Positions 82 to 35,932 of a DNA stretch of 35,932 nt are shown here, one piece after another. The translations under genes were made by a program, and so were the position numbers. Origin of the DNA: a virus; UHGV virus genome UHGV-1541349. One strand, written 5' to 3'. Position 1 is the first letter of the stretch. Each line of letters opens with the position of its first letter. Below the pieces are notes generated by a model, which searched no databases, was not told the origin of the DNA, and saw only the letters and a list, made by a program, of their open reading frames with translations.

Positions 82-447
82 TTATTTGTCCAAGATTCTA
101 TCCATAATATTTCTTAGTTCTTGTCTGGTTGATTCTATTTTAGCAAGCAACGTTTTGATCAATGAGGGTGAAAAATCAACTGTGCGTGGATCGTTAGCTA
201 ACCACAGTTTAAGTAACCCACCAAGTCGACCAAGATCAGCATTTACTCGGCTAAGCTCTACAACCTGTTCAATATCTACAATAGACTCAACCTGATAACC
301 CATTGCTACTTTACGAATGAAGCTCGCTACACTTAAGCCAGATGCTTCTGCATTTTCCTGGATTTGCGCTTTTTCATCTGGCAAACAATAAACTTTAATT
401 GGTGTACTATTTTTTCTAGTCTGAGAAACGGTCATATCATTCTCCAT
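82..447 (-). CDS. Ribbon-helix-helix relaxosome accessory protein, MobC-like (putative)
   Basis: N-terminal RHH-like segment (IKVYCLPDEKAQIQENAEASGLSVASFIR) and C-terminal LGRLGG motif resembling the MobC family. Family assignment is from motif recall only. Any relaxase partner would lie beyond the window start. Confidence 0.4.
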   Translation of the reverse strand: MENDMTVSQTRKNSTPIKVYCLPDEKAQIQENAEASGLSVASFIRKVAMGYQVESIVDIEQVVELSRVNADLGRLGGLLKLWLANDPRTVDFSPSLIKTLLAKIESTRQELRNIMDRILDK

Positions 448-717: not shown

Positions 718-1011
718 TTATTCTCGCGGCTTGGGTTTTGGCGGCCTGCCACGTTTCCTTTGAAACCTATTTATCTCTTTCGCTATATCGTCATTTTCTG
801 TCTTTGACTCAACAGATTTATCTATCCAATCCTTAACATCTTCTCTACGCCAGAGAAGACGTTTATTACCGGGAAGACGGCATCTTGGTGGAAGACATTT
901 TGGATTTCGCGTTGCATCACTGCGGATACTTTTTACAGTTTTCTTTAATGCAAAAGCCAACTCTTCAACGGTTATAAGTTCTGGCATAACTGATTTCATC
1001 GAAGAACCCAT
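718..1011 (-). CDS. AlpA-family HTH regulator / excisionase-like DNA-binding protein
   Basis: Small basic protein with an AlpA/Xis-like HTH (ITVEELAFALKKTVKSIRSD...LPGNKRLLWRREDVKDWID). Typical of integrative elements. Exact start uncertain. Confidence 0.55.
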   Translation of the reverse strand: MGSSMKSVMPELITVEELAFALKKTVKSIRSDATRNPKCLPPRCRLPGNKRLLWRREDVKDWIDKSVESKTENDDIAKEINRFQRKRGRPPKPKPRE

Positions 1012-1920: not shown

Positions 1921-2235
1921 ATGAAGTTATCACTGAAGATAAAGTATTCTAAGATAGATGAATGTGAGGTTGCCATGACAACGATGAAAGCTAGACCCAG
2001 TTCTGTTGCGGATATTCTTTTAAATGAGTATTTGAAACCTTTAGCTATGTCTTCACGTGACTTAGCTAATTTGATGGGAGTACCTTATAGCAGAATTGAC
2101 GATATATTACGACACTCTAAAAATATAAGTAATAGAGAGGGGGAATTACTTTCTAAAATCTTCAATACTGATAGCGATTTTTGGATAAAACTTCAAGAAA
2201 ACTATATAAATCATACATGCAAATTCCATAAATAG
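1921..2235 (+). CDS. HigA-like XRE-family HTH protein (antitoxin-like), no cognate toxin seen
   Basis: HTH resembling HigA/VapI antidotes (SRDLANLMGVPYSRIDDILRHSKNISNREGELLSKIF..FW). True start may be the internal Met at 1975. No HigB/RelE-like ORF is adjacent. Confidence 0.5.
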   Translation: MKLSLKIKYSKIDECEVAMTTMKARPSSVADILLNEYLKPLAMSSRDLANLMGVPYSRIDDILRHSKNISNREGELLSKIFNTDSDFWIKLQENYINHTCKFHK

Positions 2236-2499: not shown

Positions 2500-4989
2500 T
2501 TAATGTTCAATATCTATTTGATTATCAATTTGAATAATGTTTTGAATCTCACTGTAAATATCAATGTTCTCATCTGGTACATCTATGCTAACCAATAAAC
2601 TATATTTAACATTGTTAATATAGCGATCCTGCGCAGTACGATATTTCCACCATCCACCAACAGGATAGACAGCGATAGTATTCATCTCTGTTAAATCTGC
2701 AGCACTGCCTTTCCAAGCATCTGAGTGTAATGAACCTCTAACTCTGAGTTGAGGCCCCAGAAACCATCCTGACGCATCTCCTTCAGGTCCATTGTATTCT
2801 TCATTATTCGCATTACGGTTTATCGAAGCACGGAAATTTTCAAGGGTCTGATTAGGTCTAATAACTGCAAATCTCAATCCATGAGATTGATACGAATATT
2901 GTCGTCTGAATCCTTTTTGACTTGGATTAGGTTCAATAAAATACGACAATGTGATTCTTAAAATAACATTTGTTTCTGGTGGTAGTAAGCGAAGAGCTTC
3001 TACGGGCCAAGGGAGTGAAAACAGATGCATTTCATTCAATGTAGGATCAGTAGAACCATCTCTTTTAAATGGGGTGATTTCCGACTGAGATATTAATGTA
3101 AGTGCATTTTCCGCACTATGCATTGCTCGATTTAAATTAGGTACTCCATAACCAACCATCCTTAATAAGCTTTCTTTAGCCGATTTTGGTGTCCCCTGTG
3201 CACGTTCTGTTCTATATCGTTCGTGCATACGACTAGTCCATCTTGCTGTATGAACAAGTAATCCCCTAATAGTTTCAGGCCAATATTCTGGGTACTGAGC
3301 CATTAGCATAGCAGCATGTTTTGATACTAGAGCACAGGCTGCGCTAGTATCTGAATTAACTTCAAACAATTGATTTGTTGCCCTGCCAGAGGTTGTGAGC
3401 AAAGATAATTCAATTGTATTTGTGATTTCATCACGGCTAGGTGATATAAGTTTGTTTCCGCCTTCCTCTACTAAATCTGGCTTATATGGGGCATGCTTTT
3501 TCCATCCCCAGGATACCGATGACCGAGATGACGGTGCAATATCTTCTGACATAGCGAAAGGAGACCAACCATCATATTCGCGGTCTGTATGGGTTGTTTT
3601 ATCAGTATACGCCCCTACAGTTAATGCATTCCAAGATTGAGCAGGATCTTCAATTTCAGCAAGAGTCACTGAATCCCAATAATCTAATTCTAAATTTGTA
3701 GGTTGAGAGTTACCCGCAGAAATTATAAATAATCTGCGGATATCATCCTCTAAACCAAAACTAAACTTGTCAATCTCTGCAGACCATGAGGACGGTTGGC
3801 CTCCAAGAGTATTAGGCTCTGCTGTCACAGCAAGCGAATAAACTCTGCGCCAGTTCGGGTTTTCCAGCTCCAGACGACTTGACGTTCCTGTAGTAATAGC
3901 TCCATAAAGATTAGGATCATTAGTAGCTCTTGGAGGTAGTATCCTTCCTGATTCGATATTGTACGGAATCGAAATGTCCTGATCGTTCAATAAAACAGAC
4001 AGGAAATCTCCATAAACACATAGTCCTGCTTGTCTGGAACCGTGGTCATTATAAGGCCTTTGATTATAATCATCGAAAAGTGGCCAAGATATGTCCCAAG
4101 CAGCTGCCAGTGATGAGTTAGTAAATCTAGATAATAGTGGATTATTGTAGTTAACACCTGTATCTAATATACAAACAGAAACATCAGCTTCATTGTTACG
4201 CGTAATTCTTGCAGCAACATTTTCTGCCCACTGATGCTGTTCTGTAGGTAAGGAATTAACTATAACTGATATATCATCCCTCGCTGATCTTATCTCTTTT
4301 AAATTAGATATTAATTCAGGACAAACTTTTAATCTCGATAGACTCGTACGGATAAGAACAACAGTAGTATCGAAAAAATTAATAGAAGTATTCCCGAGCC
4401 TTCCATTAATTCTTTCGCATAAACGCCGAGCAATATTTAGCACATCCTCCTTATTACCCTTAAGCCAAAGCTCAAACCACTTTTCAACACCGTGATCATC
4501 CGGAATAAGATCTTTTTTATCTGTCCAGAAAGAAGTTATATCTGCTAACTCGATATTTTGTATGCTATCAATTAACAAATGATTTCTAGGGAACTCGATA
4601 CCATCCTTCGATGGATTCAAATAGTCATTTATTTTTTTAGTGAATTTAGTTCTGTCATTTTCATTAATGTATATAATCGCAGTTTCACGATTATTTGATT
4701 TAACTAAAGAACAAAGCTTGAAATAAGTATTATCGATTTTATCTATAGGAAGATCGCATTGTTCAAAACTGATTAGCCTAACATAAATCCCTTTTTCATC
4801 AGTAACAGGGGGAAGCCTCGGTCTTTCATCATAATGATTCAATATACGGCTATACTGATTTAGTAATGATATACCATGTACCGCTCGATCACGAGCTGGG
4901 ACTTGGGGACTACGACCATTGCTCCTAGAGCGATAGTTTTCGGGGGAAACATAGCCGTTTAATAAAATATGCCTCTTGTTGGTAGTCAT
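2500..4989 (-). CDS. ietS: Subtilisin-like S8 serine peptidase with N- and C-terminal extensions (IetS-like)
   Basis: S8 catalytic motifs in the correct order: D (VCILDTGVN), H (NDHGSRQAG), S (DTSAACALVSKHAAM). Lies 9 bp downstream of an AAA ATPase on the same strand, the architecture of the IetAS defense pair. Symbol is by architecture only. Confidence 0.7.
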   Translation of the reverse strand: MTTNKRHILLNGYVSPENYRSRSNGRSPQVPARDRAVHGISLLNQYSRILNHYDERPRLPPVTDEKGIYVRLISFEQCDLPIDKIDNTYFKLCSLVKSNNRETAIIYINENDRTKFTKKINDYLNPSKDGIEFPRNHLLIDSIQNIELADITSFWTDKKDLIPDDHGVEKWFELWLKGNKEDVLNIARRLCERINGRLGNTSINFFDTTVVLIRTSLSRLKVCPELISNLKEIRSARDDISVIVNSLPTEQHQWAENVAARITRNNEADVSVCILDTGVNYNNPLLSRFTNSSLAAAWDISWPLFDDYNQRPYNDHGSRQAGLCVYGDFLSVLLNDQDISIPYNIESGRILPPRATNDPNLYGAITTGTSSRLELENPNWRRVYSLAVTAEPNTLGGQPSSWSAEIDKFSFGLEDDIRRLFIISAGNSQPTNLELDYWDSVTLAEIEDPAQSWNALTVGAYTDKTTHTDREYDGWSPFAMSEDIAPSSRSSVSWGWKKHAPYKPDLVEEGGNKLISPSRDEITNTIELSLLTTSGRATNQLFEVNSDTSAACALVSKHAAMLMAQYPEYWPETIRGLLVHTARWTSRMHERYRTERAQGTPKSAKESLLRMVGYGVPNLNRAMHSAENALTLISQSEITPFKRDGSTDPTLNEMHLFSLPWPVEALRLLPPETNVILRITLSYFIEPNPSQKGFRRQYSYQSHGLRFAVIRPNQTLENFRASINRNANNEEYNGPEGDASGWFLGPQLRVRGSLHSDAWKGSAADLTEMNTIAVYPVGGWWKYRTAQDRYINNVKYSLLVSIDVPDENIDIYSEIQNIIQIDNQIDIEH

Positions 4990-4997
4990 TTCATCCC

Positions 4998-5984
4998 TTA
5001 TTGTCTACTTTCTTGCCTACGCTTTATAGCCTTTACTAACAAATCGGTTGTAATATTGTTTGCATTATAAAGCACTGATTCTTTGGCAGCATCTTCACTT
5101 GCTCGCGTGATCTCCGCTGCACTTAGACCTGAAGCACTATCAATGATCTCACTCCAAAATAAATTACCGAGGTCAAAGACAGCGAGTCTCTGTTCAATAA
5201 GATTCCTGATTAGATTATCCTCAGGCCTTGTGAACGGTATAATATCGTCAAATCGTCTATATAAGGCGCGATCTAAAAGCTCTGGATGATTGGTTGCAGC
5301 TAAAACTATGCTCTCAGAATCATCCTGCTCTACAAACATTAAAAAAGAATTTAAGACCCTACGAATTTCTCCAACGTCATTCTGAGCGCCACGCTGAGTT
5401 CCTATAGCATCGAACTCGTCAAAAAAATATACAGCTCTTGTTTGCCGTATGTGGTCAAAAATTAAACGCAGCTTAGCTGCAGTTTCACCCATATAGCGAG
5501 TGATTAGATTATCTAAGACGACTGTATAAAGTGGTAGCTTTAACTCTGTAGCAATGACTGATGCGGACATTGTCTTACCAGTACCGGGAGGACCAGTGAA
5601 AAGAATTTTTCTTCTTGGAATAAGCCCAAACTCAGAAAGTTTATCTTTCTGTTTTTGTTCAAGCAGAACCTGATTCAATCTTTCCCTAACGCTTCCAGAA
5701 ATCACCAGATCTTGAAGATGTACTGGCTTGTTCGTTTGCTCAAGTAACCCCTTAAGATCACCATCAGGCTGCTTAACAAATGGTGTAAGTCGTTTTTCAA
5801 CTAAACCTACAGAACTCGTTGTTTTCTGATTTTTATCAACTAAGTTTTTTATATCATTAGCAAGCTTATGATGACCTTGCCTTGCTTCCTTAGCTGCCAC
5901 CTGCAAAGCAATAGAAAAGAAACGCTGATCATCACGATCAACGTGGCTTTTCAATAAAGCTTTGATCTGCTCTGCAGTAGCCAT
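4998..5984 (-). CDS. ietA: AAA-family ATPase (IetA-like)
   Basis: Walker A GPPGTGKT and Walker B VYFFDEFD in a classical AAA fold. First gene of a two-gene operon with the S8 peptidase. Confidence 0.7.
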   Translation of the reverse strand: MATAEQIKALLKSHVDRDDQRFFSIALQVAAKEARQGHHKLANDIKNLVDKNQKTTSSVGLVEKRLTPFVKQPDGDLKGLLEQTNKPVHLQDLVISGSVRERLNQVLLEQKQKDKLSEFGLIPRRKILFTGPPGTGKTMSASVIATELKLPLYTVVLDNLITRYMGETAAKLRLIFDHIRQTRAVYFFDEFDAIGTQRGAQNDVGEIRRVLNSFLMFVEQDDSESIVLAATNHPELLDRALYRRFDDIIPFTRPEDNLIRNLIEQRLAVFDLGNLFWSEIIDSASGLSAAEITRASEDAAKESVLYNANNITTDLLVKAIKRRQESRQ

Positions 5985-27860: not shown

Positions 27861-28517
27861 TTAAGCCAGTCGCAGCATGCACGTCCCGCACGCTCTGGCA
27901 ATATCGAGATGAGCAACCTCCGCTGGCTGATTCGCCGCATCAATCATTTCCTGCACGTCCCGGCTTGCACCGTAACGGCGAACCACGCCCACAAACTCTT
28001 CCACGTCATGACCGCGCAGCTTCAGCTTTGGCTGCCCTTCCTGCGTGAACTTCGGCGCACCAAATTCATCTGTCGCTTGGCAGATGTGATAAAGCTCGTG
28101 CTCTATCAGCGCGCAGAATTCCAGATCGGAACATTGCGAGCAGTAATCGGCGGCCAGCGTGATGATGAACTGCGGCACCCTGCCGAACCATTCATACATC
28201 TGCTGCTCCATCCGCGCTTTCTGCCAGCCTCCGGCCCGCATTGCCACTTCTTCCGCCTGCCCCAGCACGGAACGCCCTTTCTTCTCGAAAGCGTTCGATG
28301 CCCAGAGAAAGCACAGATCCGCTTCAAGCAAATGCTGGTGGTCATGGTTGTAGAGGTCACCCTCATCGCTCAGGATGTGCTGATTCAGCCACTCGCCAAC
28401 GTCATTAGCGGGCATAATGCTGATGTACGGCTTCGGGTCAGGTGGCATCGTAAAATGCGCTGGTGGGTGTGGTCTGTTCATGAATAATTCCAGTGCTCCA
28501 TTATCGAAGCCCCTCAA
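27861..28517 (-). CDS. HExxH-motif protein, putative zinc metallopeptidase
   Basis: Contains IEHELYHI (an HExxH zinc-binding motif). Lies between the Rha gene and the terminase genes. Confidence 0.45.
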   Translation of the reverse strand: MRGFDNGALELFMNRPHPPAHFTMPPDPKPYISIMPANDVGEWLNQHILSDEGDLYNHDHQHLLEADLCFLWASNAFEKKGRSVLGQAEEVAMRAGGWQKARMEQQMYEWFGRVPQFIITLAADYCSQCSDLEFCALIEHELYHICQATDEFGAPKFTQEGQPKLKLRGHDVEEFVGVVRRYGASRDVQEMIDAANQPAEVAHLDIARACGTCMLRLA

Positions 28518-34241: not shown

Positions 34242-34528
34242 TGCCTTACCTCCATAAGCGCCCTATTAATAAACGCCGTCATTGGATTTGCACATCCCCA
34301 CCCCGTACCATCTGGATTTCTTTTAATTGGCTCCTTCTTCACTTTGCGTTTTGCATAAATAACCGTCTTCCACTTACGCTCAACAACACTCAAATGCCCT
34401 TGTTTCACCATATGCCTTGCTGCTTGAGCGATTCTGTTATTTGGTATTCCGGTAATCAGAGCTAATTCATGTGGGGAGAATTGTTCATGAGTTTTCAGAT
34501 ATTCCAGGATGATTTCTTTTCCAGTCAC
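34238..34528 (-). CDS. ren: Ren-like protein
   Basis: 96 aa with an MTGKE N-terminus and winged-HTH-like core resembling lambda Ren. Directly downstream of the replication genes. Confidence 0.5.
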   Translation of the reverse strand: MTGKEIILEYLKTHEQFSPHELALITGIPNNRIAQAARHMVKQGHLSVVERKWKTVIYAKRKVKKEPIKRNPDGTGWGCANPMTAFINRALMEVRQ

Positions 34529-35436
34529 GATCTGCTCCTGTAACTATCCCATGTAAACGCAAGAGTGCACCCTCCGCCATCATTCATCCTGTCAATAACA
34601 CGCTCACCAATGAATGCCGAAAGTTCATCTTTGCTCTGATTACTAATCAGGATTGTTGGCTTCATGTATTCATATCTGGTGTTGATAATTTCGAACATGA
34701 TTAGCTTTTCAGCATCACTGCCGAACTGCACGCCAACCTCATCGATTATTAACAAGTCAGGATGCGTAAATTGCCTAATGACTTCTTCTTCAGTTCTGGT
34801 TGCGGCCTTAGACCATGTTGATTTGTACTCTCTGGCAATTTTCAACGCAGTGGTAAATATCACAGAGCTTTGATGCTCGATAATGGCGTGCCTAGCGATA
34901 GCCAGTGCAAGGTGGTTCTTTCCAGTTCCAGGCTTACCACACATGACCAGTCCGCCACCTTTTTGAAGGCGTTCAGGCCACTTACTGGCATATGCCTGGC
35001 ATACCTTAAGAACTCGCTTTGCATCATCGTTAACAGGCTCATAATTCTGAAGAGTGCAATTTTTGAACCTCTCTGGAATATTGAGAGAATTCAACAAATA
35101 TTCAATTTTTGATTGTCTTGCTCTTTGTTCTGCCTGCTCACGTTCAATCTCTTTCTTACGAATTTTCTCCTCAAGGCACTGTGGGCACTCAGATTTACTT
35201 GAAGTAATTCTTTTTCCTGAGATGGTCAGATATTTCTCATAGGAAGTATATTTACCGTGTTTCTCGCACTCTTCCACTGTGCTGGTAACTGACATTCCAT
35301 CTGATACTGATCCAATTTTGCTAAACTCAAGTTTCTGTTTCAGATCAGAAATGTCATTGATTTTTGAGTCTACAAGTTGCCTTTGCAGTGCCAGATTGTA
35401 ACCATTTGTCGTATTCATATTCACTCCTGCGCCCAT
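34525..35436 (-). CDS. DnaC-like helicase loader
   Basis: Walker A GKPGTGKNHLA and Walker B LLIIDEVG. Occupies the position of lambda P. Probable true start is ATG 35418, just after the upstream stop. Confidence 0.7.
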   Translation of the reverse strand: MGAGVNMNTTNGYNLALQRQLVDSKINDISDLKQKLEFSKIGSVSDGMSVTSTVEECEKHGKYTSYEKYLTISGKRITSSKSECPQCLEEKIRKKEIEREQAEQRARQSKIEYLLNSLNIPERFKNCTLQNYEPVNDDAKRVLKVCQAYASKWPERLQKGGGLVMCGKPGTGKNHLALAIARHAIIEHQSSVIFTTALKIAREYKSTWSKAATRTEEEVIRQFTHPDLLIIDEVGVQFGSDAEKLIMFEIINTRYEYMKPTILISNQSKDELSAFIGERVIDRMNDGGGCTLAFTWDSYRSRS

Positions 35437-35831
35437 GAAGGCATTTCAGTTTGCCCGTAATCTTTGGCGGCAAAGTTTTCCTGCATAGCTCGCTGCTGCG
35501 GCCTAGGTTGAGATTTCCCCTTTGGAGTCTTGGGTTCAAAAATCCCCTGCCAACCACTGGCGATGCTCTGGTTTATAATTTCTTCAGGTGTATATCCCTT
35601 CTCCAGACTTCTGCTTAGAACGTTGATAGCCTGAGTGACGCTTTGCTTAGACTTGATCGACTTACCTATCTCCTTGCGATAGGTAACCCACGACAACCAT
35701 GTTTCTGCCGATAACCAATCAGGCAACTCTGTTTCTAGCGGGTCGAACTTCTGAGAAATTTTTTTGGGGGATATAGGGGGTTTATTAATATTTTCTTTTG
35801 TCTTTAAAGAATGTCTTTTGTGTGTCTCTAA
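35421..35831 (-). pseudogene. Replication initiator (O-like/DnaT-like C-terminal domain), 5' end truncated by an IS5 insertion
   Basis: The reading frame runs straight into the IS5 terminus at 35832, and the apparent N-terminus MFAPS is encoded by IS5 end sequence from a TTG. DnaT-like C-terminal segment (WLSWVTYRKEIGKS...ASGWQGIF). Confidence 0.5.
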
Positions 35832-35932
35832 GGAAGGTGCGAACAAGTTCCTGATATGAGATCATCATATTCATCCCGAGCGCATCCCAGAGGGACATCA
35901 TGAGCCATCAACTCACCTTCGCCGATAGTGAA
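35832..35932 (+). mobile_element. insH: IS5 left end (partial, continues beyond the window)
   Basis: Terminal ggaaggtgcgaacaag with the transposase start ATGAGCCATCAACTCACCTTCGCCGATAGTGAA (MSHQLTFADSE) at 35900. Preceded by the preferred CTAA target at 35828-35831. Confidence 0.8.

Follow-up and report, generated by a model that had tools for sequence, protein, structure and literature searches.

An ISKpn26-type insertion sequence (IS) has, with a probability that we put at roughly 0.87, inserted into both the replication initiator gene and the origin of replication of a lambdoid Escherichia coli prophage, and would have left that prophage replication-defective. The window analyzed here, a whole JGI/IMG contig of 35,932 nucleotides (virus genome UHGV-1541349), ends within this element. 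An earlier note on the same DNA had proposed that an IS5 element truncates an O-like or DnaT-like replication gene preceding the gene for a DnaC-like loader; that the origin is cut by the same insertion is a point absent from it. The case is one of ordinary IS-mediated prophage inactivation, a kind of event that is already known, and nothing about it is mechanistically new.

The interrupted gene was recognized by homology to intact relatives. On the minus strand of the window, a reading frame is open from 35831 to a stop codon at 35423-35421 and has no start codon of its own. This 411-nt segment (35421-35831, minus strand) is the 3' remnant of a lambda-O-type initiator, comprising codons 146-281 and the stop, as identified by comparison with the phages mEpX1 (JQ182727) and CurroJimenez_Bas106 (PQ850599). 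Over the 3' part of the initiator gene and the start of the loader gene (35300-35831), the DNA is 99.1% identical to CurroJimenez_Bas106 and 98.9% identical to mEpX1, also matches phage N7, and is 98.3–99.6% identical to 18 complete E. coli genomes. All of these phage and E. coli matches end at query base 532, corresponding to window position 35831, the boundary of the IS. The mEpX1 annotation names the intact gene replication protein O; it is 846 nt or 281 codons long and lies between cII and a DnaC-like gene, an arrangement also found in Bas106. The match boundary in mEpX1 (L001 position 3532) falls at codon 146, the 145 N-terminal codons being absent from the window, and the intact gene has one TTAG at the insertion site. 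The window shares with both phages the gene order O, DnaC-like, Ren-like and nin genes; the phages, however, carry an uninterrupted 281-codon gene and a whole origin, whereas in the window both are interrupted by the IS.

Profile searches gave the same assignment to an O-type initiator. The window fragment matches PHROG 678 ("replication initiation O-like") over profile positions 188-309 of 346. Together with the 99%-identical intact genes and the common end of all matches at 35831, the interruption of an O-like gene upstream of a DnaC-like loader is confirmed, as the earlier note had claimed. Its other label for the gene, DnaT-like, was not sustained: no Pfam DnaT match was obtained, the 136-residue window fragment matched no Pfam family even at E<=5, and the only hint was a match of the initiator fragment to PHROG 6451 ("primosomal protein", 3.7e-16). 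Downstream, the DnaC-like helicase loader (34525-35418, minus strand) encodes 297 aa from an ATG at 35418, which begins 2 nt after the initiator stop (TGAatATG). It matches IstB_IS21 (PF01695, 1.3e-18), PF00308 (1.7e-7) and PHROG 50 ("DnaC-like helicase loader", 9e-86), and calls of the same length exist in Bas106 and related contigs; by these profile matches the loader gene looks intact.

The ORF list for the window contains a 141-aa ORF (35421-35846), which PHROG 18589 matches nearly end to end. We considered it as a stand-alone gene and rejected it because its TTG start and first five codons are IS sequence and because intact 281-codon genes are 99% identical to it at the DNA level. For annotation, the 141-aa "hypothetical protein" called there should be dismissed as artefactual: it is what remains of a gene, opened by a start codon that belongs to the IS.

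The last 101 bases of the window (35832-35932, plus strand) are the first bases of the IS. They begin with a 16-base terminal inverted repeat, GGAAGGTGCGAACAAG (35832-35847, plus strand), which occurs once in the window, where a 16-base exact scan is expected to give ~0.01 chance matches, and the terminal pattern of ISKpn26-type elements, GGAAGGTGCGAA(C/T)AAG, is matched exactly at the boundary. Directly before the repeat stands CTAA (35828-35831), TTAG on the gene strand, which comparison of the junctions identifies as the window-side copy of the 4-bp target duplication; the terminus at 35832 and its preceding CTAA had both been correctly placed by the earlier note. A transposase start codon at 35900 (plus strand) opens a frame encoding MSHQLTFADSE, the start of an InsH-type transposase, of which the window shows only these first 11 codons, as the contig stops 101 bases into the IS.

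The identity of the element was settled by comparison with complete copies. The window bases match 100/101 positions of a complete 1196-bp copy, named in RefSeq "IS5-like element ISKpn26 family transposase"; this reference was the third IS copy, those from RCS47 and a P1-like plasmid being truncated by IS1. Against IS5A of K-12, 35832-35932 is identical at 85/102 positions. The complete ISKpn26-like element is 91% identical overall to IS5A of K-12, and for ISKpn26 inserted in mgrB the inverted repeat, a 4-bp direct repeat TTAA and 91% identity to IS5 have been published (PMC10569121). The published IRL and IRR of ISKpn26 agree with the two junctions described here at 49/50 and 48/50 bases, respectively (sequences from PMC10569121). 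We assign the element to the ISKpn26 type on this sequence agreement; "IS5", as used in the earlier note, is correct at the family level only, and IS5 sensu stricto, the K-12 element, was rejected on its 83% identity to IS5A over the available 101 bases. Within the IS end, base 35877 (plus strand) departs from the common ISKpn26 sequence (CCCGAGC versus CCGGAGC). The window, L003 and L006 carry this variant and L004 and L005 the common base, in spite of their near-identity in the flanking prophage DNA.

The earlier note had placed the N-terminal part of the gene beyond the IS, and proposed looking there for the displaced 5' portion and a 4-bp target duplication. Starting from the opposite end of a complete ISKpn26-like copy, we predicted what the reciprocal product should be, residues 1-146 of the initiator and then GKVRISRSFLPKLTR, and looked up nine sequence variants of it. 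One of the nine was present exactly in the protein collection (P0103; 146 O residues and 15 IS-encoded residues). Six ENA metagenome contigs encode this fusion protein; in these far-side contigs the junction reads ...GTCTCGAAGTTAG|GGAAGGTGCGAATAAG and shows the opposite IS end, GGAAGGTGCGAATAAG. On the window side, six ENA metagenome contigs contain the 141-aa ORF exactly, its IS-derived start included. At the DNA level the far side reads ...CTCAATGTCTCGAAGTTAG|GGAAGGTGCGAATAAGCAGG... and the window side ...CACCTTCC|TTAGAGACACAC..., with the duplicated TTAG appearing as CCTTCC|TTAGAGACA on the window side and as GAAGTTAG|GGAAGG in the far-side contigs. TTAG, found once in the intact gene, stands at both junctions and is therefore the 4-bp target duplication of a simple insertion. 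Both the 5' portion and the duplication were thus recovered, from other samples: the far side for the window's own sample is taken from samples with an identical window-side junction. Both junction types are known from short contigs, which all break within 51-161 bases of either IS end, and the full IS in place was never seen.

Broader searches returned neither junction. A protein search with the N-terminal 146 aa gave many fragments with no IS fusion among them, and most of the short "partial" proteins that it returned end at contig breaks in the iteron array of the gene. Junction pattern scans of species-representative genomes and a metagenome collection matched only unrelated IS insertions (in Shewanella, Alteromonas and others), two such scans of viral contigs gave no match, these collections apparently lacking the contig of the window itself, and the window-side junction was in no complete E. 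coli genome searched.

The same insertion splits the origin of replication. In the intact mEpX1-type gene, three repeats of TGTCTCnAAnTTAGAGACA stand at 24-nt spacing, with a first, divergent copy, TGTCTCCAAGTTAGCAACT, 20 nt upstream and an AT-rich stretch after them. The four repeats and the AT-rich stretch align position for position with the annotated ori iterons and AT-rich region of lambda, in which the annotation places four iterons at 39034-39118 inside O. It is by this alignment that the putative iterons and AT-rich region of the present phage type were assigned. In lambda, ori consists of four iterons joined to a 38-bp AT-rich sequence, where the strands separate for DnaB loading (PMC3349717). 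Of the fourth iteron, the window retains the right half, TTAGAGACA (35823-35831, minus strand), the left half, TGTCTCGAAG, being beyond the IS; in the far-side contig L015 this iteron reads TGTCTCGAAGTTAG|GGAAG. The insertion target, TTAG, forms the middle of this fourth iteron. Beside the half iteron lies the AT-rich origin segment, a presumed DNA-unwinding region (35781-35822, minus strand), which aligns with the lambda AT-rich sequence CACAAAAGACACTATTACAAAAGAAAAAAGAAAAG. With 81% A+T, against 51% in the window overall, it ranks within the top 0.4% of 42-nt stretches. Iterons 1-3 and half of iteron 4 now lie about 1.2 kb from the AT-rich region. The gene contains 14 YTAR sites, 4 of them in iterons, each of which is centred on TTAG; that an iteron was hit therefore needs no special explanation.

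Two further features of the iteron array were observed among relatives of the gene. First, iteron number varies among E. coli initiator relatives, altering the protein linker; some relatives are 313 aa instead of 281 (P0105, P0114) and carry the peptide repeat KLETKNVSKLETLNVS three times. Second, many database "partial" initiator proteins (e.g., P0106, P0108, P0110, P0111) end inside the array, which suggests that it is a frequent assembly break point.

The effect on the protein can be read from its domain organization. In the 281-aa intact homologue as in the 161-aa fragment from the far side, Phage_rep_O (PF04492) spans residues 21-115 (E about 1e-36); in the full-length intact protein (E 5e-36) no other Pfam family matches significantly. 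Identity to lambda O is 58% over residues 1-115 of the intact protein, beyond which the two are unrelated, and the initiator is accordingly a lambda-O-type origin-binding domain joined to a different C-terminal domain. We propose that the 1196-bp ISKpn26-type element of the IS5 family transposed into the TTAG in the middle of the initiator gene, carried by a lambdoid E. coli prophage with a contractile tail, and duplicated TTAG in the process. The 161-aa far-side product keeps the whole Phage_rep_O domain and could still bind iterons, but is without the C-terminal domain; the window-side piece keeps the C-terminal domain without a native start codon. With the gene cut at codon 146 and iteron 4 split, initiator and origin are therefore both broken. 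No single protein would be able both to bind the origin and to recruit the DnaC-like loader, and the origin, damaged in cis, would probably not open even with an intact initiator supplied in trans, so that the induced prophage is expected neither to amplify its DNA nor to give normal bursts. It would instead be copied passively with the chromosome, its cargo genes kept. Transcription from the early rightward promoter could reach the loader gene, the nin genes and Q only by passing through the IS, in the antisense direction relative to the transposase gene. Function could be regained through a resident helper phage, by recombination with a related prophage or, rarely, if the IS were excised precisely.

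It might be supposed that the insertion is tolerated, a split protein or the initiator of a co-resident phage allowing the prophage still to replicate after induction. The far-side fragment does keep a complete DNA-binding domain, the TTG-initiated ORF does cover the C-terminal domain, and defective O157 prophages have been seen replicating, possibly via the functions of other prophages (PMC2669165). However, the TTG lies inside the IS with an AGGA only 2 nt upstream of it, and a consensus scan of the IS end found no outward promoter. Moreover, by analogy with lambda, separation of the iterons from the AT-rich region would damage the origin in cis, which a protein supplied in trans should be unable to mend. 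We therefore regard continued replication as quite unlikely, and favor a double lesion of initiator and origin that leaves the prophage defective.

IS elements often mediate adjacent deletions, and the window ends in the IS with its own far side unseen. The IS could on these grounds be the edge of a prophage remnant left by an IS-mediated deletion or rearrangement, with the immunity region and the gene's N-terminal half lost or moved elsewhere in the genome. The far-side contigs make this very unlikely: the exact reciprocal junction, with the same TTAG, is present on the six contigs, and three samples (ERZ918965, ERZ27239104 and ERZ1755931) each contain both junction types. Beyond the far-side junction, cII, cro, a cI-type repressor gene, N, cIII, kil and the gene for an ERF recombinase follow on a 12.8-kb scaffold; the early region has therefore not been deleted. 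Least credible of all is a chimeric assembly of prophage DNA and an abundant IS, with the gene really intact, since although short-read contigs commonly break or mis-join at repeats and many "partial" versions of the initiator stop within the iterons, the same base-exact junction occurs in four other assemblies from different assemblers (k119, k127 and NODE-style names), and a chimera would not produce the reciprocal junction that was predicted and found, with its matching 4-bp duplication.

A simple insertion thus remains the preferred reading, and the four window-side contigs that we fetched bear on its history. Each carries the junction at exactly the same base and is 99.97–100% identical to the window over 2.7–5.5 kb. 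The recurrence of the same junction, with near-identical flanks, in several independent gut-metagenome assemblies marks the insertion allele as an inherited one.

The interrupted system resembles that of lambda in several respects. Both have a Phage_rep_O domain, an origin embedded in the gene and made up of four repeats and then an AT-rich segment, and a gene position between cII and the helicase-loader gene. They differ in the iterons, which are of the ATCCCTCAAAACGAGGGA type in lambda and TGTCTCnAAnTTAGAGACA here; in the C-terminal half of the present initiator, which has no similarity to lambda O; and in the loader partner, a DnaC/IstB-type ATPase here and P in lambda. IS insertions in the lambda cII-O-P region (r14/IS1, r32/IS2) and small deletions of ori (r93, r96, r99, ti12) are classical replication-defective mutants; they show that phage replication is abolished when an IS lands in or beside the replication genes, or when the iterons and AT-rich region are damaged. 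IS insertion is also a well-known route of prophage inactivation, for example among the prophages of E. coli O157 Sakai (PMC2669165). Compared with both, the case described here is of one natural insertion that hits initiator and origin, seen in gut metagenomes and not selected in the laboratory. ISKpn26 is well known for inactivating genes. Knock-outs by it, for example of mgrB in Klebsiella pneumoniae, involve the same element, a 4-bp YTAR-type duplication and inactivation by simple insertion, but there the target is a resistance-related chromosomal gene and the duplication TTAA, whereas here they are a replication gene with its origin in an E. coli prophage, and TTAG.

The insertion has consequences for how such prophages are interpreted. 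In annotation, this one should be scored as probably replication-defective despite its complete-looking late genes. More generally, where the origin is embedded in the initiator gene, a single insertion is a double knock-out, of a protein acting in trans and an origin acting in cis, which bears on the rescue of such prophages by helper phages. We consider it unlikely that the insertion was a selected domestication event as opposed to random decay; one insertion allele was found, with no recurrence. Were domestication true, one insertion would have removed initiator and origin together, sparing the host lethal prophage replication on induction while cargo such as IetAS was retained, and the retained N-terminal fragment and iterons might hinder infection by phages that replicate in the same way. 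The literature covered here yielded nothing on replicative killing in connection with insertion sequences.

The rest of the prophage appears largely undamaged. Minus-strand genes tile the window without gaps, and near full-length profile matches were obtained for genes of the nin region and Q (NinB, RusA and Q), lysis genes (holin, endolysin and Rz), head genes (large terminase, portal, protease/scaffold and major head protein) and tail genes (sheath, tube-region proteins, tape measure, baseplate, fibre and fibre-assembly protein), as well as for several accessory genes. At the level of their reading frames, the scanned genes of the window otherwise look intact, in agreement with the earlier view of the lysis and structural genes. 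A search of 5,426 complete E. coli genomes gave no near-identical intact prophage; the best match reached 78% coverage at 97.9% identity.

Several other features of the window were observed. First, a contractile-tail module at 6720-27829 (minus strand), with sheath, baseplate wedge and hub, and a tape measure with a transglycosylase domain, stands beside the lambda-like early, nin and lysis region; related modules are present in many E. coli genomes at 95–97% identity. Second, the left-end accessory region (2500-5984, minus strand) encodes two proteins that match PADLOC models of the anti-phage defence system IetAS: an S8-type peptidase of 829 aa resembles IetS (2.9e-34), and an AAA ATPase of 328 aa resembles IetA (5.5e-77). 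Their NCBIfam IteS/IteA scores are below the cut-off. Third, three accessory genes at 82-447 (minus strand), 718-1011 (minus strand) and 1921-2235 (plus strand) resemble, respectively, TraJ, possibly an excisionase-like regulator, and a HigA-family antitoxin. The match to the TraJ conjugal-transfer regulator model scores 163 bits versus a cut-off of 134, and no obvious HigB partner ORF adjoins the antitoxin gene. Fourth, the segment 30726-30881 (minus strand), between the Q antiterminator and holin genes, holds a pair of tRNA genes, Thr(TGT) and Asn(GTT). Lastly, a 218-aa ORF at 27861-28517 (minus strand), between a Rha-like regulator gene and the likely small terminase gene, gives a full-length match to PHROG 513 ("transposase").
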